DNA of 10,277 bases from a virus (Duplodnaviria; Heunggongvirae; Uroviricota; Caudoviricetes), in the IMG/VR virus record IMGVR_UViG_2836824207_000004, positions 1 through 10,277 of that record; one strand, 5' to 3'. The translations under genes were made by a program, and so were the position numbers. Below, piece by piece: positions 1-10,277 of this stretch. Below the pieces are notes generated by a model. The model did no database searches. It saw nothing but the letters and a program-made list of their open reading frames with translations, and had not been told where the DNA came from. Within the stretch, counting starts at the first letter, position 1. Every line of letters starts with the position of its first letter.

Positions 1-1200
1 ATGCTAACAGATACAAAAATTAAATCTCTTAAACCTAAAGACAAAGTGTATAAAGTCGCAGATCGAGATGGACTTTATGTTTCCGTGTCAGTGACTGGGA
101 CTATCACTTTCCGCTATGACTATCGTATAAACGGCAGACGAGAAACGCTGACTATAGGCAAATACGGTGTTGATGGCATCAATCTTGCGGAAGCTCGTGA
201 GCGTTTGATGATTGCTCGTAAACAAGTAAGTGAAGGGGTTTCACCTGCAAGACAAAAGCGTGCCGAACGTAATAAAATCCGCAATGCAGATCGTTTTTGT
301 ATTTTTGCGGAAAAATATCTTGCTGACGTCAAATTAGCTGACAGTACAAAAGCCTTACGTATTGCAACATACGAGCGAGATATTAAAGACACTTTTGGCA
401 ATAGGCTGATGGTTGAAATCACAACTGATGAAATTCGTCATCACTGTGAAAAAATCAAAGATCGCGGTGCTCCTTCTACGGCGATATTTGTCCGTGATCT
501 CATTGCAAATATTTATCGCTATGCTATTCAACGCGGGCATAAATTTAGCAACCCTGCCGATGAGATTGCTAATTCATCCATTGCTGTATTCAAAAAACGA
601 GAGCGTACATTAACTCCACGCGAAATTCATTTGTTCTTCAATGCTCTTGAAGAAACTCAATCGGACTTCGGTTTGAAAAAAGCGGTTAAATTCATTTTGT
701 TAACCCTTGTACGAAAGGGCGAACTCATCAACGCTAAATGGGATGAAATCGATTTCAAAAATAAAGTCTGGACAATTCCCGCTGAAAGAATGAAAGCTAA
801 ACGTGCACATAACGTTTATTTGTCTGAACAATCCATTGATTTAATTGTAGCGTTTCAAATTTATTCAGAGGGTTCGCCATACTTGTTGCCAGGTCGAATA
901 AATCGGCAAAAACCTATCGCCAATAGCTCTCTTAATCGAGTGATTGCCAACTGTATTCAATATATTAATCGCAACGAGCAGCTCATCGATGATTTTACCG
1001 TACACGATTTGCGTCGCACAGGATCCACCTTACTACACGAGATGGGATTCAATAGTGATTGGATTGAGAAAAGTTTAGCTCACGAGCAACAAGGTGTGCG
1101 TGCAGTTTATAATAAAGCTGAATATGCAGAACAAAGAAAAGAAATGTTGCAAGTGTGGGCTGATAAGGTGGATGAATGGATTAAAGGTAAGAATTTGTAA
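1..1200 (+). CDS. int: Tyrosine recombinase/integrase, P4/IntA-like with N-terminal arm-binding domain (399 aa)
   Basis: The N-terminus MLTDTKIKSLKPKDKVYKVADRDGLY...FRYDYRINGRRETLTIGKY is typical of the Arm-DNA-bind_3/DUF4102 domain. Catalytic residues are present: R in TLVRKGEL, K in ERMKAKR, HDLRR (H-x-x-R), LAH, and Y in VYNKAEY. The ATG is at base 1, so the promoter, RBS and att site cannot be seen. Stop TAA at 1198-1200. Confidence 0.96.
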   Translation: MLTDTKIKSLKPKDKVYKVADRDGLYVSVSVTGTITFRYDYRINGRRETLTIGKYGVDGINLAEARERLMIARKQVSEGVSPARQKRAERNKIRNADRFCIFAEKYLADVKLADSTKALRIATYERDIKDTFGNRLMVEITTDEIRHHCEKIKDRGAPSTAIFVRDLIANIYRYAIQRGHKFSNPADEIANSSIAVFKKRERTLTPREIHLFFNALEETQSDFGLKKAVKFILLTLVRKGELINAKWDEIDFKNKVWTIPAERMKAKRAHNVYLSEQSIDLIVAFQIYSEGSPYLLPGRINRQKPIANSSLNRVIANCIQYINRNEQLIDDFTVHDLRRTGSTLLHEMGFNSDWIEKSLAHEQQGVRAVYNKAEYAEQRKEMLQVWADKVDEWIKGKNL

Positions 1201-1225
1201 AAAAACCGCACCTTTCGATGCGGTT
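1201..1225 (-). terminator. Rho-independent terminator of the minus-strand structural operon, between convergent int and the gp21-like gene
   Basis: The minus strand reads AACCGCATC-GAAA-GGTGCGGTT-TTTTT: a 9-bp stem with one U.G wobble, a GAAA tetraloop and a U-tract. One arm (AGGTGCGGT) is an 8/9 match to the USS core. On the plus strand there is no U-tract after the stem, so termination of int would be weaker. Confidence 0.85.
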
Positions 1226-1234
1226 GCTCTGCTA

Positions 1235-1978
1235 TTAAAGTCCCATTCTGCGACGCATTTTGAATGATTTCAGGCGACGCATTTTAGCTGCACCTGTATT
1301 AGCTCTGCGTTGTGCTTTGCGAATTGCTGTACGTTGTTTGGCGGTCAAACGAACCTTACCCGAAATGCGTTTATTAATACGCATTTTCTTGCCATTGCGG
1401 ATAGCAAACACTTTTCTATAAGCGGCATCAGTGATTAATTCATCAGCCAATGCACCATCTAACACCGCTTCATTTTCTTCCGTTGAGAAAATTAATGCGT
1501 CCATCTCACCTTGCATTTCCTCTTCACCTTGTGGCAATTTGGTCAAGATAAATTCGTGAATATTGCGTGCAAGGTCATTGTCAAAATCATCTAATAGTGC
1601 CCCTGCATTTTCTTCAGAAACGCCTTTAGAAATTAAGTAATCATAGACCGCATTTAGTCCGATGGTAACAACCTCTTGCTCGTCATCGTCTAATTCTCCA
1701 TCTTGATTATCATCTGCAACAGCGATCATCAACCCAAGCAGGCGATCACCAAATCCTTCGTTTTCTTCAAGATCCTCTTCATTAGTTTCACACCATTCAT
1801 AGAAATAATTCAAGGCTTCTGAAGCAATTTGCTGTTCTTGGAAAAGTGCAAGTCTGTTATCGGGCTTATCTTCTTCCGCACCATCAAGAATCATTGCATT
1901 TTTATTTGCAACCATTGCGGTGGGTTTTCCTACCGCTTTTTTCGGGAGGCGTGATAAATGTAATAATTGCTCAAACAT
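1235..1978 (-). CDS. gp21: P1 gp21-like virion protein; acidic body with a strongly basic C-terminal tail (247 aa)
   Basis: The C-terminus YRKVFAIRNGKKMRINKR...RLTAKQRTAIRKAQRRANTGAAKMRRLKSFKMRRRMGL resembles the P1 gp21 tail as remembered (FKKVVRNGEIKLIRKR...RLTAAQKSALKKARRKAQTGAAK...). It lies directly downstream of the gp22-like gene, as in P1. RBS AAGGA lies 7 nt before the ATG and overlaps the sheath stop codon. Confidence 0.85.
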   Translation of the reverse strand: MFEQLLHLSRLPKKAVGKPTAMVANKNAMILDGAEEDKPDNRLALFQEQQIASEALNYFYEWCETNEEDLEENEGFGDRLLGLMIAVADDNQDGELDDDEQEVVTIGLNAVYDYLISKGVSEENAGALLDDFDNDLARNIHEFILTKLPQGEEEMQGEMDALIFSTEENEAVLDGALADELITDAAYRKVFAIRNGKKMRINKRISGKVRLTAKQRTAIRKAQRRANTGAAKMRRLKSFKMRRRMGL

Positions 1979-1987
1979 AATCTTTCC

Positions 1988-3628
1988 TTATCGAGTAATC
2001 GTTGATGTAATATGTATTTGGCGAACACAACCCTCTGGGCGAACACGCCAGCTGACCATCATTACGTCTGCAGGGCGTTGTTGATTTGGCATAATTTCTA
2101 GCTCATAAGCCTTGCCACCTAATTCACTGCTATTTACAAGCCACCCTGACGTTTTCGCGGCATCAAAATGCTGGGTGATCATTCGATATGCTGCTTTTAT
2201 CGCCTCTTCCATCGGCATAAAGAGTAAAAATTCTCTTGCTATACGTGCAACATCTCGTTCAAGCGAGGTGATAATTTCAACAGAAGAAATTAAATTTAAG
2301 AAACTGGTTTCTTTTCCCGCTTTGGTAATGGCATCAGCAAAAACATAGCCACTACTACTTGAGAATGTTTGGAAAATAACAGGCGTAATTCCAGCCGCTG
2401 CTAAATCGGATAATTCCTCATTATCAGGCTTATAAAGTTGCTTCATTCCTTGTCGTTGAATTGGGAATTGACGACCCGCTACCGCGTATTGTTTGGCAGA
2501 GAAGCCAAGTGCATTTTGTACGGCATTACGCTGGCAAGATAAGGCACAGCGATAAGCACTCGTCCCAATTTTGACCCGACCACTTACCCCATTAGGATCA
2601 TTACATTCCACAGGATGCCAGAGTAAGCTTAATAAATAGCTACTCAATCCCAATTGATTTACCCAAGCAATCGCTTGTTTTGGCGTAAAATGATTGGGCA
2701 CATCAATCATTACTTGAATATTTTTATCAAATCCTAATTGTGCTAATGCAGCACAAAGTGCGGTAGAATTTGAGCCTAAACTTGAAATATAGACAAAATT
2801 GCTATCCGTATCTTTCAGCTGTTTTACTGCACTTTGGTATTGGAGTGCGGTGAAACTACTCACGCTCCCTTCACTAAATGGATATAGCACCTCTGTTACT
2901 TGAACGCGTTGAATGCCATTCTCATTTTTACCATAAGCAGCACAATCTTTCGGAATTACCGCACCTTGAGCTAAAACAAGTTCATAATCATCAAAGGCGT
3001 ATTTCGCAATTTGTGCTTGCAAGCTATTTGGGTAGCCATCGTCATCAACAGAATCTAAGTCGATTGATCCCGTAAATTCATCAAGCACAGATTTATTTTT
3101 ATCCATTACTTTTAACGTGATCATTTTGGCATCAACTGACTGGCTTCTTTCATCTTGCAATTCAGGTGCTGAAATAGAAAGTCGTATGCCATCATTAAAA
3201 CAGCCGTGATGTTTTAATGCCAAAATGAAGGTATCACTAGGAACCTCATCGACCAATTCAACTTTTAACGCATAACGTCCACTAGGGCTATCAGGCTTTT
3301 TCACTACAATCCACTTGTTCTTTGCATCCGTTCCGACTAAGCGAGAAATCACCGCACGTTTTGCTCCCTTATTTAAGGCTTCAACAAGCTGAGTATGTGC
3401 ATCATTCAGTGCATTAACTCGAATAGGCTCAGGACGACCGGTAATACGTAGGACATTTCCTTTATGTACTTCAAATGCTCGACCAATCGGACCGCGTGGT
3501 AATCGAGCTACTGCAGCAAATGTTTGATCTTCGACAGCATTAACCGCAAATCCCTCACTCTTGTCTAGCGTTGGATTAAGCTGTACACCGGGTTCGTGTC
3601 CTAAAGAACGACTAAAACTGGTTGCCAT
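1988..3628 (-). CDS. gp22: Contractile tail sheath protein, P1 gp22-like (546 aa)
   Basis: The N-terminus FSRSLGHEPGVQLNP...AAVARLPRGPIGRAFEV...GRPEP resembles P1 gp22 as remembered (IQQSLGNASGVAVSP...GIGVFARGKPFTVLAV...GEPLKP). It has a sheath-like C-terminus (AGRQFPI, FDAAKTSGWLV, VSWRVRPEGCVRQIHI), and size and synteny fit. RBS AAGGAG lies 6 nt upstream, within the last codons of the 153-aa gene. Confidence 0.87.
   Translation of the reverse strand: MATSFSRSLGHEPGVQLNPTLDKSEGFAVNAVEDQTFAAVARLPRGPIGRAFEVHKGNVLRITGRPEPIRVNALNDAHTQLVEALNKGAKRAVISRLVGTDAKNKWIVVKKPDSPSGRYALKVELVDEVPSDTFILALKHHGCFNDGIRLSISAPELQDERSQSVDAKMITLKVMDKNKSVLDEFTGSIDLDSVDDDGYPNSLQAQIAKYAFDDYELVLAQGAVIPKDCAAYGKNENGIQRVQVTEVLYPFSEGSVSSFTALQYQSAVKQLKDTDSNFVYISSLGSNSTALCAALAQLGFDKNIQVMIDVPNHFTPKQAIAWVNQLGLSSYLLSLLWHPVECNDPNGVSGRVKIGTSAYRCALSCQRNAVQNALGFSAKQYAVAGRQFPIQRQGMKQLYKPDNEELSDLAAAGITPVIFQTFSSSSGYVFADAITKAGKETSFLNLISSVEIITSLERDVARIAREFLLFMPMEEAIKAAYRMITQHFDAAKTSGWLVNSSELGGKAYELEIMPNQQRPADVMMVSWRVRPEGCVRQIHITSTITR
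2756..2764 (+). repeat. Haemophilus-type DNA uptake signal sequence (USS) inside the sheath gene
   Basis: Perfect AAGTGCGGT followed by AGAATTT, which fits the AT-rich flank of the Hin-type USS consensus. Confidence 0.8.
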
Positions 3629-3631
3629 TGA

Positions 3632-4093
3632 TTACTCCTTGTTGTTTTCTTCATCAGGTTTAACATCTTCATTTTGTTGATGCTTATCTCTTCGTTTACG
3701 TGATTTTTTGCTCTCTCCGGTTTCGTTTCTTTCAGTTTCAACAGTATGAGTTTCTTCAACTTCAGCTGTGTGAGCGTCTTCAACTGTATCAACCTCTTTT
3801 TCTGCAATAGAAAGTGAGATCGCTTTTTCAAAATCATTTGCTTTTGCCACCAATTCAATATCCGTAACGAATTGCATTAAATGACCAAATGTCGGAAATT
3901 CAACTTCTTGCTTTGTGATACCGCTTGCTTTTAAATTAGAGTCTAAAAACAGGCTCACCGAAGCCCCAACAACATCACGGGGCATATGGTTTTCTACAGT
4001 AATTTTTTGCGGGAAGTTAAATTCCCCACATTCTTGTTTTAAGATCGCTAATGCTTCATTTTCTTTTAGCATTGATCCAATAATTAAGAACAT
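3632..4093 (-). CDS. Hypothetical protein between capsid and sheath genes (153 aa): about 97-aa putative folded domain plus a charged, low-complexity tail
   Basis: Strong RBS AAGGAGA lies 7 nt before the ATG, right after the capsid double stop (TGA TAA). The ORF exactly fills the gap between two operon genes, and its final codons supply the sheath RBS. Confidence 0.85.
   Translation of the reverse strand: MFLIIGSMLKENEALAILKQECGEFNFPQKITVENHMPRDVVGASVSLFLDSNLKASGITKQEVEFPTFGHLMQFVTDIELVAKANDFEKAISLSIAEKEVDTVEDAHTAEVEETHTVETERNETGESKKSRKRRDKHQQNEDVKPDEENNKE
3732..3787 (-). repeat. Imperfect short tandem coding repeat (TVEDAH/TAEVEETH/TVETE)
   Basis: The minus strand has three related units, ACAGTTGAAGAC, ACAGCTGAAGTT and ACTGTTGAAACT, separated by HT-encoding segments. 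Confidence 0.45.
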
Positions 4094-4108
4094 AGGGGAA
4101 TCTCCTTA

Positions 4109-5743
4109 TCAATTTGGGGTGTCTAACACATCAAGCAAAGCAACACTTGCCGCATACTCTGGCACGGGGTTTTGTTCTGCAAAGTTTTTACCCGTTACCC
4201 AATAGCCACCCTCAGGGCTTTCTGAATTTGGGTTAATGCGATCAATTTTTGGTGCACCCACTTCACCAAAAATAAATGGATTGAACGCTGGTTGTGCGGA
4301 ATTAGCACCAATCAACAACATACGAGCGGCTTTCTTGCCACCACTTTCGGTGCGTTTACCTAAGCCTTTCGGTGTGTAATAAACTTCATACATTCCACCT
4401 AAGCGACCTAAGCGATAACTCCCTGGGCGTGCTGAAATATTAGATGATTCAAAATAATCCCCACCAAGTGCAGAAAGAATAGTACGAATGCGATCATCAA
4501 CATAAATATGGGATACCCCGTGAGAGCCGTTACGATTTGCCATCTCTTGGCTAATCATATCGATTTTGCTTAATAAAATTTTGGCAATCTCTTCTTGAGA
4601 TTTGCGTTTACCTGCTTCGTCCCAATCAAAGTCAAATTCATTCGCATTGTGGAATTTCGCAATGGTTGTCGCATCATTCAGGGCTTTATAAAGATGTTCT
4701 TGAGCAAATTGCATACGAATCATCATTGTCCCTTCTGTCGCGGGATCAATACCCATTTCTTGACTAAACTGACGTTCCGCTTCTGGAGTTACCACTACTT
4801 TTGAGCGGTAGGATTTTGCAAACATTGTATATTTATTTGCAATCGTTTTGACTGACGGCGTTGCCTCTTTAAATTTCACATCTTCCACGTTCAAATAACC
4901 GCGTGCTGCCACAACGGTATTTTCAGGCACGGCGGACGTAAACGCGACGGTAACTTCGCCAGTTTGAATTTTAACAGTGGCAGTAAAACTGTAATCCGTA
5001 TCGCCAATTTTTACTGCCGCCGAAACCATTTCAGTATCAGATTTTGAATTTGTAGTTGTCGCCGCAACTAACCCATTTACCATAATTTGCGTACGACTAG
5101 GATAAAGCGGGATCACGGTAGCAGACTGATCGCATTGAGCAAAATCGGTCATTACTGAAGTAATTTTACCTGAGTAATTGGTTTTATCACTTGAAGTTAA
5201 TGTATGTGTACGATCGGAAGTAATAAATGGATTACCACCACTTACACCATTTAATGATCCCCCAACATCATACATACCGGTTTTATTTCCCGCGTGATGA
5301 GAAATAATAATTAACGGTGCTTCACCCGTGTTTTTATCCCCTTGCAAATAATAGGCAAATGGCACACCCGCAAATAACACAGACTTAATCGCAATCAAGG
5401 CTTGGCGTGGCACCATCGCACGTGCTTCTGATGACATTGAATTTGATGTTGCAATCGCATCATCAAGATACACTTTTCCTTGTTCAAGTGCTGACGCAAC
5501 TAAGTGTGAACCCGGTTTACATCCGTGTGCTTTTTCATAGGCATTAATGCCATCTAAAATCGCTTGTCGGATTTCCACCATTCCCACTTGATTGGCTTCC
5601 TTCCCATCATTAAACGAGCCTAATTTATCATTGATTTGCTCAACAGAATCTAACTGTAACGATGAAACATCATTCACATCAGCAAGTACACTATCCATTA
5701 ACAACTGAGCTTCTTGGCAGCGTTTATCATCATAAAATGGCAT
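4109..5743 (-). CDS. gp23: Major capsid protein precursor, P1 gp23-like (544 aa)
   Basis: YEKAHGCKPGSHLVASALEQ resembles P1 gp23 YAAAHKSMPRPEILASC. PLYPSRTQIMVNG resembles PIRKGRTNIYVNR, TGEVTVAFTSAVP resembles IGQIALSFSKAPD, and KYTMFAKSY resembles KYTLFPSQF (P1 sequences from memory). It is the first gene of a 23-22-21-like operon, with RBS GGAGG 7 nt before the ATG and a double stop TGA-TAA. Confidence 0.88.
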   Translation of the reverse strand: MPFYDDKRCQEAQLLMDSVLADVNDVSSLQLDSVEQINDKLGSFNDGKEANQVGMVEIRQAILDGINAYEKAHGCKPGSHLVASALEQGKVYLDDAIATSNSMSSEARAMVPRQALIAIKSVLFAGVPFAYYLQGDKNTGEAPLIIISHHAGNKTGMYDVGGSLNGVSGGNPFITSDRTHTLTSSDKTNYSGKITSVMTDFAQCDQSATVIPLYPSRTQIMVNGLVAATTTNSKSDTEMVSAAVKIGDTDYSFTATVKIQTGEVTVAFTSAVPENTVVAARGYLNVEDVKFKEATPSVKTIANKYTMFAKSYRSKVVVTPEAERQFSQEMGIDPATEGTMMIRMQFAQEHLYKALNDATTIAKFHNANEFDFDWDEAGKRKSQEEIAKILLSKIDMISQEMANRNGSHGVSHIYVDDRIRTILSALGGDYFESSNISARPGSYRLGRLGGMYEVYYTPKGLGKRTESGGKKAARMLLIGANSAQPAFNPFIFGEVGAPKIDRINPNSESPEGGYWVTGKNFAEQNPVPEYAASVALLDVLDTPN

Positions 5744-5961
5744 ATTTTGCCCTCCATAGTTTCATTAATTGACGTATTGAAATTACAAAGGGCAATGAAT
5801 GAGAATTGAAGCCACTCTGCCTTTGTAAACAGCGTTACTTTACAAATGACTAGAAGAAAGAAATTTTCATTTTTCCTAATTTGACTACGAAATAAAGTGC
5901 AGTGGCGAATAGATAGGAAAAATACCGCTCTCCTAAAAAAATCAACCTTTATGCTAGAGGA
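5744..5961. promoter_or_regulatory. Divergent control region between the capsid operon and terminase; probable late promoter(s)
   Basis: This is the only sizeable non-coding gap (218 bp) and lies between divergent starts. It holds three TTACAAA copies (5783-5789 +, 5822-5828 -, 5840-5846 +) forming two inverted repeats, and GCGTTACTT (5832-5840), a 7/9 match to the remembered P1 Lpa box AAGTTACTT. No canonical sigma70 -35/-10 pair was recognised. Confidence 0.6.
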
Positions 5962-7494
5962 ATGAGCAAAAATACCCTACCTAAATTAATTCAAGATCAT
6001 CGTTATGCCGCTTTTGTGAAACGGTACGCTTTCAATTTGCCTTTATTTGCGAAAGAAGTTTGCGGATTAGATCTCACTTATCAGCAAATTGATGTGATGG
6101 AGAGCGTACAGACACTCGGATCTCGTACTTCTATTTCATCTGGCCACGGCACGGGAAAGACAGCGAGCTTTGGGGTGATCGTACTTTGGCACTTAACTTG
6201 TTATTATAATTCGATCACGGCAGTTATAGCCCCAAAAGTAGAACAAGTACGAAAACAAGTATTTAAGGAAGTTGCGTTATCACTCAATCGAATGAAAAAA
6301 AGCAACTTTAGCTGGGTTGCTGAAGAAGTAGAACTCAATGCTACCGACATTAATATTAAGGGGGCGAAGCAATATTGGCACGTTCTTGCCAAAACGGCAC
6401 CCAAAAATGAACCTGAAAACTTGGCGGGGTTGCACGGCGATTATCTTTTAGTCATCGCTGATGAAGCCTCTGGGATTGAAGATACCCACTTTGGCGTGCT
6501 GACAGGTTCACTCACTGATCGCCGAAACAGAATGGTGCTTGCCAGTCAGCCAACTCGAAATACGGGCTTTTTCTATGAAACCCATCATAAACTAAGCCGT
6601 GCTTTTGGTGGTGCGTGGAATAATCTTACACTCAATTCTGAACTTTCTCCCATTGTTAGCTATGAATTTTTACAAGAGAAGAAACGCCAGTACAGCAAAG
6701 AGCAATACGACATTAAAGTACGCGGATTATTTCCGAATAAATCCGATGGCTTTTTATTGGGGCGTAGTGAGGTTGAAGCGATCTTCGGACATAATCCATT
6801 AAATGGCTATCAAGATTGGGGCTATGTGATCCCTATTGATGTCGGAGGTGGGGATTTTCGCGATGACAGTGTAATGACCGTTGCACGTGTGTGGGGATTT
6901 GGAATGTATGGCGAAAATGCCCGCCGTGTTTATATTGAAGACATTCCCATTGTGCGTGATGATCAAGATACGGTGAATTTTGCAAGAGCGGTCGCCAGAA
7001 AATCTACAGATTATCAAAACGCTACCCTTGTCGTGGACTATGGCGGGCTAGGGGTAGGTTTCATTCATAACCTTAATGACCTTGGTGTGCCAAATATTGA
7101 AAAAGTGAAATGGGGAAATCTTTGTTTCCGTAAGGAATTAAAAGAGAGTTTTTATAATTTACGTGCACAGTCGATCGTTTCTCTTGCCAGAGCCATTCAA
7201 GAAAAACGCTTTGGTATTAGTGCAGCGGTTGCGGATCGTTATGGCATACGCATCATTAATGAATTAACTCGCATACCTTACAATTATGATAATAAAGCCC
7301 GCTACCAAATTATGAGTAAACCCGATATGAAAGCTCAAGGCATACCCTCGCCTGATATTGGCGATACGTTTGCCTTTGCGTTCCTTGAAAGCACGCATTA
7401 TATTGCGGCAGAAATTGGTGAGCAAACAGAAATAGATCGCCGCTGGTCGGATAAAATCGCTCAAAGTTTAGCAGGACTTGATAACTACCTCTAA
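5962..7494 (+). CDS. pacB: Terminase large subunit, P1 PacB-like (510 aa)
   Basis: Walker A SGHGTGKT (6139-6162), Walker B VIADEASG (D167-E168), coupling region LASQPTRNTGFFYE and nuclease aspartates in IDVGGG, VVDYGGLG and SPDIGDT are present. NLAGLHGD, KVRGLFP...DGFLLGRSEVE and KVKWG match motifs remembered from P1 PacB. Confidence 0.94.
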   Translation: MSKNTLPKLIQDHRYAAFVKRYAFNLPLFAKEVCGLDLTYQQIDVMESVQTLGSRTSISSGHGTGKTASFGVIVLWHLTCYYNSITAVIAPKVEQVRKQVFKEVALSLNRMKKSNFSWVAEEVELNATDINIKGAKQYWHVLAKTAPKNEPENLAGLHGDYLLVIADEASGIEDTHFGVLTGSLTDRRNRMVLASQPTRNTGFFYETHHKLSRAFGGAWNNLTLNSELSPIVSYEFLQEKKRQYSKEQYDIKVRGLFPNKSDGFLLGRSEVEAIFGHNPLNGYQDWGYVIPIDVGGGDFRDDSVMTVARVWGFGMYGENARRVYIEDIPIVRDDQDTVNFARAVARKSTDYQNATLVVDYGGLGVGFIHNLNDLGVPNIEKVKWGNLCFRKELKESFYNLRAQSIVSLARAIQEKRFGISAAVADRYGIRIINELTRIPYNYDNKARYQIMSKPDMKAQGIPSPDIGDTFAFAFLESTHYIAAEIGEQTEIDRRWSDKIAQSLAGLDNYL

Positions 7495-7495
7495 A

Positions 7496-7523
7496 AAAGT
7501 GCGGTCAAAAAAGACCGCACTTT
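7496..7523. terminator. Bidirectional hairpin terminator formed by two inverted USS, between convergent pacB and darB-like genes
   Basis: AAAGTGCGGTC (7496-7506), loop AAAAAA, GACCGCACTTT (7513-7523): a perfect 11-bp stem with perfect USS cores at 7497-7505 (+) and 7514-7522 (-). It sits 1 nt after the pacB stop and 4 nt from the darB stop. Paired-USS terminators are well known in Haemophilus. Confidence 0.9.
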
Positions 7524-7527
7524 GTGA

Positions 7528-10277
7528 CTAGACAACCGAATTTGCTGTAATCTTCGCATTATTGAGATCTTCACGATAAGCTTCGACAAGCCAATCCCAA
7601 GCCTGCTTATGAATGATCCAGCTGTTGGCGGGTAAGACGGCGAACTGCTCATCATTAAATTGTTTGAAGAATTGTCCATCACCTTTCTGATTAAAGGATT
7701 TGTCTTTCTTCAGCCACGCAATGGCATAAGTAGGATCAAGTTCATCACGTTTTAATACACTGTTTACACTGTTACGGAATTTATTCCCGTTACTGTCTTG
7801 ATATTTCAACGTATTGCCCGAAACAACCAGATAATTCGCAAGAAGAGTATAGCGTAAGGCTTCTTTTTCCTTTGCTTTTTCTGCATTCTGTTTTTCAAGC
7901 TGTTTTTGTTGGTAATCAATAAATAAATCTGATGCCAAGCGGAATAGATAAGTGAAAATATTGCTCTTAAAATCCGTTATACGAGAAGAAACAACGCGTT
8001 GATAATCAAACAAGGTAAACCCCTTCTCAATAACCTTTAATTCTTCAAGACGAGCATTGGCTAGTTCATTCATTTTCTGAATTAAGGCTTCTCCACTCTC
8101 GATATTCGCAACATCAATTTGACTAAAGACATTTTCTACCGCCTCTAATGGCTGAGGCATTGGCGTGTGTATTAAATCGGAGAAGTAACCATCAGCTACC
8201 TTCTCATTTAATGGATAATTGTATTTCACATAAAAGGTGAATAATTCATCACTCACATCGTTTGACCAATAATATCGGGACTGATAAATATTACTGATCG
8301 GGGCATAAATACCGTTATCTCGATACTCCACACCTTGATCATCATAAATACGACGAATATGTTCGTAAGCTTCTGGTGATTGCTTTAACGCTTGATAGTC
8401 TTCCTCATTCAAAATAAGTGAAAAATCAAGATTACGATCATTGAATCGATATTGACGTGCTTCACTCAATTTGACTTTGGCTGAGCTGTCAATATATTTT
8501 TCAATTTCAGGCATCTCTTTAGTCCACCACTCATAGGTTGATAAAGACTGCTCCGCACGTTTTGCAATGTGCTGATAAATCACTTCACTCTCAGGACTAT
8601 TTGCCTTAATTAAGTGGTATCCCTTCAATTTTTCTTCATTATAACGATCTATTCCTTTATTCTCTAAAGGTTCTAATGAAATCCCAAGTCCAAACAAATA
8701 ATGATCATTAATCGAACTAACGTAGATTAAATCATTTTCTGATTGTAATAAATCCCCCTCTAATATTGGATAATTCTCCACCAAAAAGGCTTTTGCCTCT
8801 TTTAATGCTTGCAACCTTTCTTCATCAATATCTACCTGACTTGCCAGTTCTGATAGCTTATGTTCATACTCTTCTATCATCTGTGTGTAAGCCCCGCTCT
8901 CTTCTTCCCAATTATTGTAAAGTGGGTGTTGCTCTCCTTTTTCGAGATTTTGTTTTAAGCTGTTTGATTTGGTGCCGTAATAAGGTTGGCTTTCTTCAAG
9001 CAGACTGCTCGCTCGTTTAAAATCCTCATCAGGCATTACATCGGGATAAATAGATTGGTATTGACGCACGAATGCCGCCCACTTTTTCATTAATACGGCA
9101 TTTCTTCGCTCAAGCTTGCTTTCCAAACCAATACGTTTTTTCTGTTTGCTTGAAATCGTGGCCTCATTTGTTTCATTTTCCAACTCTTGACGAATTTTGC
9201 TAATGTTATTCTCTAATGGAGCAATTTGAGCAATGATTTCATTGTTGATTGCCTCTAAATGCCTTACGGCATCATTAAAATGGGATTGTAGAAAATCATC
9301 AAAAGTACGGATTTTTTGTGCTTCTGTTTTGATCGTTTCTGCCATTTGATAGGTATTGACAAAATCCTGTTTAAGCGTGGCTAAACGTTTTTCTTCGTTA
9401 AGTTTTTTCAGTTTTTCCTCAGCCTGTTTATAGGCTTCTTCATTACCCATTAAGTCAGCTAAATATTCCTGATCTTTTTTGCTTAGTCCATTTTCAATAT
9501 TAACTTTATTTTCATCTCCATAGAGTAAATGATTAATCCAACTCGCTTTATTTCCAATCAACTTGCGTTTATAGCTATCAAATGTACCATTCGCATCATA
9601 ATGATAAACATTCACCGCAATGCCTTCTTGTGCTAAATAGTTACCTTGACGAACACCACGACCATTACGCTGTTGCAAACTATCGGGTGTCCAGCCTACC
9701 GTTAAATGATGAATAGCTTGTGTGCCTTTTTGTAGGTTGATTCCCACTTCCGCTTTCTTATTGGCAATAATGATTTCATATTTGTTTTCAGAAAGCGTTG
9801 TGCCATTTTCATCAATAACGGTGTCCGCATTAAAGCCATCTTGAATTTCTTGCACCTCTCCGCTGTCTTTCACGGATTTTGCATTAAAAATCACAATTTT
9901 ATGTGCTGGGATATTGGCTTTATTGACGAGGGCGAGCTTTAATTTATTATGTGAGCCGATCATATCGCAAAAAATAATTTGCTTACACACGCCCCCTTTG
10001 GCTTTCGGATTAGCCCGCTCAAGATTAACGTTTTCTAAAAGTGCGGCCATTTTTGAACCGAGTTTTACATCAAGTGCTAACCCCGCTTTTTCAGCAAGTT
10101 TCAAAAATTTACTCTGATTTTCAAAATCCGTCGTGGTTAATTCTATCTGGTTGTTAATTAAACGAGCGATAACCTGAACAGTATAAAGCGTTTTTGTTGC
10201 GAAATCGTCAATCCCTTCTTTATCTTTCGCCATCATCGTATCAAGAATAATCTCTGCGGTTGTACCAATCAAATTCT
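7528..10277 (-). CDS. darB: DarB-like large SNF2/SF2 helicase-domain protein (defence against restriction), C-terminal part; 5' end outside the window
   Basis: Helicase C-terminal motifs KQIIFCD (IV), IIIANKKAEVGINLQKGT (V) and WTPDSLQQRNGRGVRQGN (VI, 9640-9672), followed by VYHYDANGTFDSY, match P1 DarB as remembered (IIICNKKAEVGINLHRGT...WTPASIAQRNGRGARVG). The frame stays open past the TTG at 10272 to the window edge, so that TTG is not the true start. The methyltransferase and N-terminal helicase lobes are not visible. Confidence 0.85.
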   Translation of the reverse strand, partial: NLIGTTAEIILDTMMAKDKEGIDDFATKTLYTVQVIARLINNQIELTTTDFENQSKFLKLAEKAGLALDVKLGSKMAALLENVNLERANPKAKGGVCKQIIFCDMIGSHNKLKLALVNKANIPAHKIVIFNAKSVKDSGEVQEIQDGFNADTVIDENGTTLSENKYEIIIANKKAEVGINLQKGTQAIHHLTVGWTPDSLQQRNGRGVRQGNYLAQEGIAVNVYHYDANGTFDSYKRKLIGNKASWINHLLYGDENKVNIENGLSKKDQEYLADLMGNEEAYKQAEEKLKKLNEEKRLATLKQDFVNTYQMAETIKTEAQKIRTFDDFLQSHFNDAVRHLEAINNEIIAQIAPLENNISKIRQELENETNEATISSKQKKRIGLESKLERRNAVLMKKWAAFVRQYQSIYPDVMPDEDFKRASSLLEESQPYYGTKSNSLKQNLEKGEQHPLYNNWEEESGAYTQMIEEYEHKLSELASQVDIDEERLQALKEAKAFLVENYPILEGDLLQSENDLIYVSSINDHYLFGLGISLEPLENKGIDRYNEEKLKGYHLIKANSPESEVIYQHIAKRAEQSLSTYEWWTKEMPEIEKYIDSSAKVKLSEARQYRFNDRNLDFSLILNEEDYQALKQSPEAYEHIRRIYDDQGVEYRDNGIYAPISNIYQSRYYWSNDVSDELFTFYVKYNYPLNEKVADGYFSDLIHTPMPQPLEAVENVFSQIDVANIESGEALIQKMNELANARLEELKVIEKGFTLFDYQRVVSSRITDFKSNIFTYLFRLASDLFIDYQQKQLEKQNAEKAKEKEALRYTLLANYLVVSGNTLKYQDSNGNKFRNSVNSVLKRDELDPTYAIAWLKKDKSFNQKGDGQFFKQFNDEQFAVLPANSWIIHKQAWDWLVEAYREDLNNAKITANSVV
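10039..10047 (+). repeat. Near-consensus USS (8/9) in the darB-like gene
   Basis: AAGTGCGGC followed by CATTTTT, which fits the USS flank. Confidence 0.5.

Follow-up and report, generated by a model that had tools for sequence, protein, structure and literature searches.

Bacteriophage P1 and its close relatives lysogenize as plasmids. Here we describe a stretch of DNA of 10,277 bases (hereafter the window), in which virion genes distantly related to those of P1 adjoin the gene of a P4-type tyrosine integrase (Int). The window comprises bases 1-10277 of the IMG/VR record IMGVR_UViG_2836824207_000004, which is 74,277 bases long, is classed as a provirus and comes from Avibacterium paragallinarum, a poultry pathogen; seven long open reading frames (ORFs) were called in it. 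Our analysis points, with a probability that we put at about 0.88, to an integrase that is the phage's own, the window being the left-hand end of a temperate A. paragallinarum myovirus of 74.9 kb (the Avibacterium phage) that is built from three modules.

Several described systems come close to parts of this locus. Pfeifer and Rocha (2024) found a few chromosomally integrated close relatives of P1 in Enterobacteria, which keep the P1-like rep and par genes and for which the cause of integration is unclear (PMC10879196). Acinetobacter phage vB_AbaM_ABMM1 (OQ471969) is a temperate myovirus with an arm-type tyrosine integrase, and pulsed-field gel electrophoresis suggests chromosomal integration (PMC10345192). 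In a 2026 paper, proteomic and large terminase (TerL) trees place ABMM1, together with Xanthomonas phage Rb1/GYRb1 (PQ569993), in one group with D6 and Punavirus, and the authors report no predicted integrase in Rb1 (PMC13478112).

Integrases that target the 3' end of guaA are also known. The Int of GIsul2 inserts at this position, with the core GAGTGGGA, and uses secondary sites reduced to GGGA or TGGG; an alpA gene lies alongside int, and both excision and integration were shown by experiment (PMC9376610). In the Escherichia podovirus vB_EcoP_ZX5 the attP core lies 190 bp 5' of int, and attB is located at the end of guaA (PMC9782041).

The integrase and its attachment sites

The product of the first ORF of the window contains three Pfam domains, all above cut-off: Arm-DNA-bind_3 (E = 1.5e-20), Phage_int_M (E = 1.5e-12) and Phage_integrase (E = 1.1e-22), the last of which spans profile positions 2-170 of 172. 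It also matches phrog_1 (integrase) with E = 3e-75, and its N-terminal domain is similar to the solved arm domains of CP4-like integrases. The candidate catalytic residues, identified by motif inspection and not by structural alignment, are complete (R238, K265/K267, H335-x-x-R338, H361 and Y370). Over its full length, Int is 56-57% identical to the integrases of the Escherichia phages TL-2011b and vB_EcoP_ZX5 (Uetakevirus), and the cassette belongs to the known, characterised subgroup of guaA-specific integrases. A six-frame search of the 74-kb record detected exactly one tyrosine recombinase, this arm-type Int.

The int gene converges on a homologue of P1 gene 21. The initial annotation, made from the window alone, had described an intact tyrosine integrase that ends 34 bp from a gp21-like gene, with only a terminator between them, and the ORF calls, the Pfam matches and a hairpin scan confirm this arrangement. 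The hairpin (1204-1225) has 9 pairs followed by a T run; it is probably the terminator of the late operon and possibly terminates int as well.

Complete genomes provide the main proof of both ends of the element. In CP034110.1 the attL core lies at 1,590,424 and the attR core at 1,665,336, i.e. 74,912 bp from core to core; between the start of int (1,590,635) and the end of the SPFH gene (1,664,756) the spacing equals that in the window record. The ends are placed likewise in the complete genome CP051639.1. The core starts 211 bp before the int ATG, and attL thus falls outside the window. The attachment (att) site is a direct repeat of 92 bp (89 matches, same orientation), which corresponds to the last guaA codons through the guaA terminator; one copy stands before int and the other after alpA, past all phage genes and next to ywiC. 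The core variants GAGTGGGA and GAATGGGA overlap the final guaA codons. At the right end, the SPFH gene is followed by a 51-aa ORF and by the gene of a 59-aa AlpA-family protein (PF05930, E = 9e-12), encoded about 100 bp before attR, and then by attR and the host genes ywiC, ridA, an exonuclease III-family (Exo_endo_phos) gene and a Na/H exchanger gene.

The host gene at the left end is guaA (GMP synthase, NCBIfam E = 3e-249). It adjoins int in A. paragallinarum NCTC11296, which is 99.5% identical to the window record over the first 11,978 bases, and its stop codon lies 203 bp before the int ATG; upstream of guaA this strain carries two further genes (of the PM0188 family in other strains) and then guaB. 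The identical integrase protein is found beside guaA in many assemblies, and the distance of 203 bp recurs in 6 of the 10 listed places with an identical integrase, besides which there are at least 13 similar places. In a sister Avibacterium species, guaA is separated from the ywiC-ridA-exonuclease genes by about 2 kb that contain no integrase, and therefore the 75 kb are an insertion between neighbouring host genes.

These results bear out the proposal of the initial annotation that a P1-related prophage is integrated at this locus, with attL immediately upstream of base 1 and attR at its far end: the end of guaA lies 203 bp upstream, and its repeat is found 74.9 kb to the right. Of the two kinds of target that it had considered, a host gene and a tRNA, the former was found, in the shape of the end of a protein-coding gene. 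A tRNA attachment site was rejected, since no tRNA is present in the window or in the 20-kb Avibacterium locus.

Two further observations concern the guaA region of the sister species. One of them has guaA, two small genes and ywiC, with the core GAGTGGGAG instead of GAGTGGGAA. Another carries, about 1.4 kb past guaA, an integrase homologue (81-89% identity) in two overlapping pieces, which possibly reflects a frameshift.

Movement of the whole unit and secondary sites

In other complete genomes, the identical int together with the genes from gene 21 to pacB has four other left flanks, in which the neighbours are a filamentous-haemagglutinin gene, a Mu-like Baseplate_J gene, a polysaccharide-deacetylase gene and an HP1-like tail gene. 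Every left junction lies at one nucleotide, directly before GGGAATAAAACC. The element has moved between sites as a whole, as CP087589.1 carries two int-to-alpA units, of 74,978 and 75,021 bp, at different loci. One of these units has inserted into a Mu-like prophage, where it separates the Baseplate_J gene from the gp48 gene; the flanks of the unit, when rejoined at AGTGGG, form a 35-mer that is present uninterrupted and with 0 mismatches in the Mu-like prophage of NCTC11296. The insertion of the whole 75 kb was therefore conservative and site-specific. Comparison of all the junctions confines strand exchange to AGTGGG within GAGTGGGA, where we infer the exact positions of cleavage. Given a 75-kb unit at multiple sites and an exact empty target in another strain, Int-dependent excision and integration is predicted for the Avibacterium phage.

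The guaA-ywiC site of CP087589.1 is occupied by a third alpA-bearing element, with different early genes. In CP081939.1 (6150-6800 of the stretch examined), a junction at TGGGA links the arm on the alpA side to codon W247 within int, which leaves in front of gene 21 a remnant of the C-terminal 136 aa of Int, without R238. This looks like Int-mediated recombination at a pseudo-site within its own gene, probably between adjacent copies.

The right end of the element is also found apart from the rest. In CP113955.1 the SPFH gene, the 51-aa gene and the alpA end belong to a P2-like element (Phage_GPA, Ogr_Delta), which in turn adjoins Mu-like genes. The alpA end occurs, in addition, on elements with different early regions, beside ywiC or an insertion sequence (IS), and in some of these the SPFH and 51-aa genes are kept. 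It seems that the att/alpA cassette is shuffled among unrelated Avibacterium prophages.

Gene content of the element and its relation to P1

A tblastn comparison of P1 (NC_005856) with the 74-kb record revealed homologues of 16 P1 genes (21, 23, pacB, darB, darA, hdf, 25, sit, 5, pro, prt, bplA, S, ssb, hrdC and dmt), at 22-54% aa identity; the homology to darB falls in two places of the record. Long open frames are present for portal, protease, capsid, sheath, baseplate, tail-fibre, tape-measure-like, holin, terminase and Dar proteins. The right-hand 28 kb are lambda-like, with pieces of a CI-like helix-turn-helix (HTH) and S24 repressor, CII, Rha, a DnaC/IstB-like loader, NinG and Dam. They also encode RecT, a YqaJ exonuclease, a single-stranded DNA-binding protein (SSB), RdgC, a Dmt-like methylase, an SPFH protein, HigBA and the products of other accessory genes.

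The same tblastn comparison yielded no homologue of P1 repA, parA, parB, cre, repL or c1. A six-frame search of the record gave no match to ParB_N, and no ParA, ParB or Rep family was found among the 56 ORFs scanned with Pfam (the 7 of the window and 49 others), out of 85 called on the full record. Among these genes are those for which the initial annotation had proposed a search (repA, parAB and cre), and their absence agrees with the integrative lifestyle that it proposed.

By its gene content, the phage is a mosaic in which a distantly P1-type particle and anti-restriction set are joined to a lambdoid control region. Its likeness to P1 is that of a distant relative and lies outside the genus Punavirus. 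The description of the virion genes as P1-like in the initial annotation consequently holds for the homologues of 21, 23, pacB and darB in the window, at this distance, and for the sheath gene at the level of a protein profile. A nucleotide search with the full window against 50,697 phage records returned no match.

Alternative explanations

Several observations weigh against an active phage integrated at guaA. The window record opens exactly at the int ATG and contains no host DNA, because its boundary was trimmed to the gene edge, and the site of this particular copy is thus deduced from near-identical genomes. At the other end the record stops about 0.4 kb short of attR, leaving out alpA and the att repeat; as the boundary precedes them, IMG/VR understates the element by its putative excision factor. 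A near-empty site exists in a sister species (the initial annotation had suggested a comparison with empty-site strains), while within A. paragallinarum no empty guaA-ywiC site was found, and the contigs with an identical YwiC adjoin alpA, an IS or a contig end. No attP excision product was seen, the public sequencing runs found being at contig level, which cannot show rare junctions. The rejoined flanks of the second CP087589.1 unit match the NCTC11296 site with 3 mismatches inside the presumed core, and this junction, less clean than the one in the Mu-like prophage, reflects either a strain polymorphism or correction towards the phage allele.

The genome of NCTC11296 adds a further difficulty, and for this reason it was not used as the main proof of the ends. 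Its attL lies on one contig (C1, 1-64766, which starts inside the prophage), and an attR-like repeat, 85% identical, lies together with matching early genes in the middle of another (C2, 716000-743600). This strain has at least three prophages with early segments that are 95-99% identical, and the split results either from an assembly break in the shared early genes or from a rearrangement.

The most serious rival holds that the prophage is now defective, a fixed resident that neither excises nor forms particles, and that the extra copies stem from past activity or from recombination. No pacA homologue was detected by tblastn with P1 anywhere in the record, CheckV estimates the completeness of the record at 81%, and in one strain the int copy is cut to its last 136 residues. 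Nevertheless, we regard this rival as unlikely. Int is intact and 100% identical in at least five different chromosomal contexts, which argues for recent movement, and the whole set of virion genes from portal to Dar consists of long open frames. The CheckV value is explained by the larger references used for the estimate, as the element measures 74.9 kb from att to att and its relatives 73-78 kb.

That the integrase is part of a small island or satellite distinct from the P1-like genes beside it, with the phage genes a remnant or independently maintained, we consider extremely improbable. P4-type integrases often mark small islands, and the SPFH-alpA end module on the P2-like element of CP113955.1 indicates that the cassette is exchangeable. 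However, the host guaA lies directly to the left of int, with no island between them, only 34 bp separate int from gene 21, and all phage genes lie between int and the matching att repeat at a distance of 74.9 kb. A search of the 74-kb record for a second att repeat gave no shared word of 14 nt or more. Moreover, other loci also harbour the full 75.0-kb unit from int to alpA, and in one case the exact empty site was recovered.

The initial annotation had also considered a phage that both integrates and persists as a plasmid. For such a dual lifestyle speaks an 81-kb plasmid record of Pseudomonas atacamensis, which encodes a ParA/MipZ-like ATPase and an arm-type integrase, and so do several plasmid records among the other relatives of the sheath gene. 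In the Avibacterium phage, in contrast, the Pfam scans of 56 ORFs, the six-frame ParB_N search and the tblastn comparison with P1 detected no plasmid-function genes, the replication genes are of the lambda-like DnaC-loader type and all the copies seen are chromosomal, so we hold this idea to be very improbable and that part of the initial annotation falls. None of the observations that the initial annotation had named as refuting integration holds for this phage: we found neither an attR close to int, nor a separate island, nor a circular plasmid with rep and par genes, and the integrative interpretation is left standing.

Proposed model

We propose that the integrated phage combines a first module for the distantly P1-related virion, packaging and Dar anti-restriction, a second that would provide lambda-like immunity, replication and recombination, and a third, a cassette of P4-type Int, AlpA and attP that would be specific for the guaA 3' end. 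In the circular genome, the early-left operon (recT, exonuclease, ssb, rdgC, dmt, SPFH) would be followed by alpA, attP and int, and the last of these would converge on the end of the late operon at gene 21. Int would exchange strands within AGTGGG of the core, in the last guaA codons, and guaA would stay intact because attP brings its own copy of the guaA end and terminator.

Once integrated, the prophage would be replicated passively with the chromosome, and therefore rep and par functions would not be needed. Excision is expected to require Int and the AlpA-family protein encoded just inside attR, and particles may still be produced. Where the guaA site is taken or missed, Int would use secondary sites that share part of the core, which would give rise to extra copies, one of them nested in the Mu-like prophage.

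Virion, packaging and anti-restriction genes of the window

The features of the window are listed in Table 1. The gp21-like protein is 27% identical to the product of P1 gene 21 over 211 aa (tblastn, E = 5e-13) and matches phrog_1053 with E = 1.4e-45. The sheath ORF gave no direct tblastn match to P1 gene 22 and was recognised at the level of the PHROG profile. Neither Pfam nor PHROG assigns a family to the 153-aa ORF, which lacks a counterpart in P1 and is 100% conserved in a second Avibacterium provirus. The capsid protein is 22% identical to the product of P1 gene 23 over 360 aa (E = 2.7e-9), matches phrog_1014 with E = 5e-85 and gives a weak Pfam match to Gp23.

A divergent region of 218 bp (5744-5961) separates the capsid gene from that of the terminase, the product of which is 33% identical to PacB over 475 aa (E = 3e-73). 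The whole DarB-like gene spans 7528-12672 of the record (1714 aa), and the window holds its helicase part. The complete protein is 28% identical to P1 DarB over 834 aa (E = 6e-64) and matches PHROG families of DarB-like proteins and DNA methyltransferases.

Table 1. Features of the 10,277-base window (strand relative to the sequence as presented).
Feature	Coordinates	Strand	Basis
P4-type arm-binding tyrosine integrase, guaA-specific subgroup, 399 aa	1..1200	+	Pfam; phrog_1; homologues
Convergent intergenic gap, 34 bp, with one terminator-like hairpin	1201..1234	.	ORF coordinates; terminator consensus match only
P1 gp21-like baseplate or tail-tube protein, 247 aa, final gene of the late operon	1235..1978	-	tblastn with P1; PHROG
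Contractile tail sheath protein, counterpart of P1 gp22	1988..3628	-	phrog_1036 (tail sheath), E = 1.9e-110
153-aa ORF between the capsid and sheath genes	3632..4093	-	ORF call only
Major capsid protein, P1 gp23-like	4109..5743	-	tblastn with P1; phrog_1014; weak Pfam Gp23
Large terminase, P1 PacB-like	5962..7494	+	tblastn with pacB; phrog_2 (terminase large subunit)
DarB-like helicase (anti-restriction), 3' part of the gene in the window	7528..10277	-	tblastn with darB; PHROG

Distant relatives of the virion module

In the phage collection, the sheath protein matched only that of Xanthomonas phage Rb1 (39%) and, weakly and over part of its length, that of Acinetobacter phage ABMM1 (26%). The virion module also matched 14 records of the plasmid collection, including Pseudomonas, Burkholderia and Acinetobacter records of 62-114 kb; the sheath shares 30-38% identity with proteins encoded by plasmid records of 81-114 kb from Pseudomonas and Burkholderia and by a 709-kb Ideonella record. 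We examined five distant relatives, i.e. two IMG/VR records, a 78-kb contig of Acinetobacter lwoffii, a 497-kb contig of Pseudomonas and the 81-kb P. atacamensis plasmid record, and all five encode an arm-type integrase with the domains Arm-DNA-bind_3, Phage_int_M and Phage_integrase. A switch to integration, as the initial annotation had put it, is thus supported as far as the integrative lifestyle is concerned and not as a recent event peculiar to this phage.

The P. atacamensis integrase (NZ_CP070504.1) is 29% identical to Int of the window, and its slot is topologically the same, behind the rdgC early operon, where it converges on the end of a late operon. The examined stretch of NZ_CP070504.1 contains both the ParA/MipZ-like ATPase (17715-18377) and the integrase (36238-37461), and the record is either a candidate for a dual lifestyle or an excised phage circle that was assembled as a plasmid. 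Additional virion genes come after gene 21 in the distant relatives; their Avibacterium homologues sit 36 kb away, and the late region was therefore rearranged around the att/int point.

These relatives allow a tentative scenario, which we present as a doubtful one. The branch of the P1 supergroup outside Punavirus (Avibacterium, Acinetobacter and Pseudomonas elements) might be ancestrally integrative, with int at the end of the rdgC operon, and the plasmid and Cre-lox systems of P1 might be derived. The Avibacterium phage would have swapped in the guaA-type Int/AlpA cassette, whose relaxed core would have led to multiple copies and nesting. The lineage-specific part is in any case the guaA-type cassette and not integration as such, and the element is best filed as a further member of the integrase-bearing distant relatives of P1 that have already been sampled.

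Significance

The Avibacterium phage offers a natural example of an exchangeable lysogeny module in the P1 lineage, in which a virion of one kind belongs to plasmid prophages in enterobacteria and to an integrase-driven prophage of the chromosome in A. paragallinarum. Precise att sites are now given for an important poultry pathogen. The guaA-type integrase acting on weak secondary sites, with 2-3 copies per genome and a prophage within a prophage, bears on rearrangements and on assembly problems in this species. Phages of the P1 type carry out generalised transduction, and an active one in A. paragallinarum, if true, would matter for gene flow. No concept is overturned by these results, as the integrating P1 relative ABMM1 and guaA-specific integrases had already been described. 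Among open-licence papers, we found no report of a P1-like prophage in Avibacterium or in Pasteurellaceae.

Comparison with known systems

Like P1, the Avibacterium phage encodes a contractile tail and a Dar anti-restriction set, which are known here from genes. The genome of P1 measures 95 kb, whereas that of the Avibacterium phage measures 75 kb and has a rearranged gene order. Around genes 21-23 the picture is mixed: the succession 23-22-21 is kept, with the extra 153-aa ORF between 23 and 22 in the latter, and the surroundings of this block differ. In P1, pmgG and bplB come after gene 21, and parS and parB stand before gene 23, whereas in the Avibacterium phage the flanks are int and pacB. 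P1 also has pacA in front of pacB, whereas the Avibacterium phage lacks a pacA-like gene immediately upstream of pacB.

The prophage state differs still more. P1 is maintained as a plasmid prophage by repA/oriR and parABS, whereas in the Avibacterium phage no such genes were found and all copies are chromosomal, between att repeats. In place of Cre/lox and C1 of P1, it has the arm-type Int as its lone tyrosine recombinase and CI-like HTH/S24 candidates for the repressor. It also differs from the elements of Pfeifer and Rocha, which are close P1 relatives with rep and par, in having a dedicated Int/AlpA/att system. ABMM1 and Rb1 resemble the Avibacterium phage as temperate or probably temperate myoviruses of 76-91 kb with a related sheath. 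However, both are very distant, with no nucleotide similarity and with other hosts, and the guaA-type Int is the Avibacterium phage's.

The closest likeness of the cassette is to the Int proteins of GIsul2 and ZX5, with which it shares the domain architecture, the target at the guaA 3' end, the core GAGTGGGA and an attP located about 190-210 bp 5' of int. As in GIsul2, there is an alpA partner, and the secondary sites are relaxed and share TGGG or GGGA. GIsul2 is, however, a 15-kb genomic island and Uetakevirus comprises podoviruses of 39-45 kb, whereas the Avibacterium cassette serves a 75-kb P1-related myovirus.

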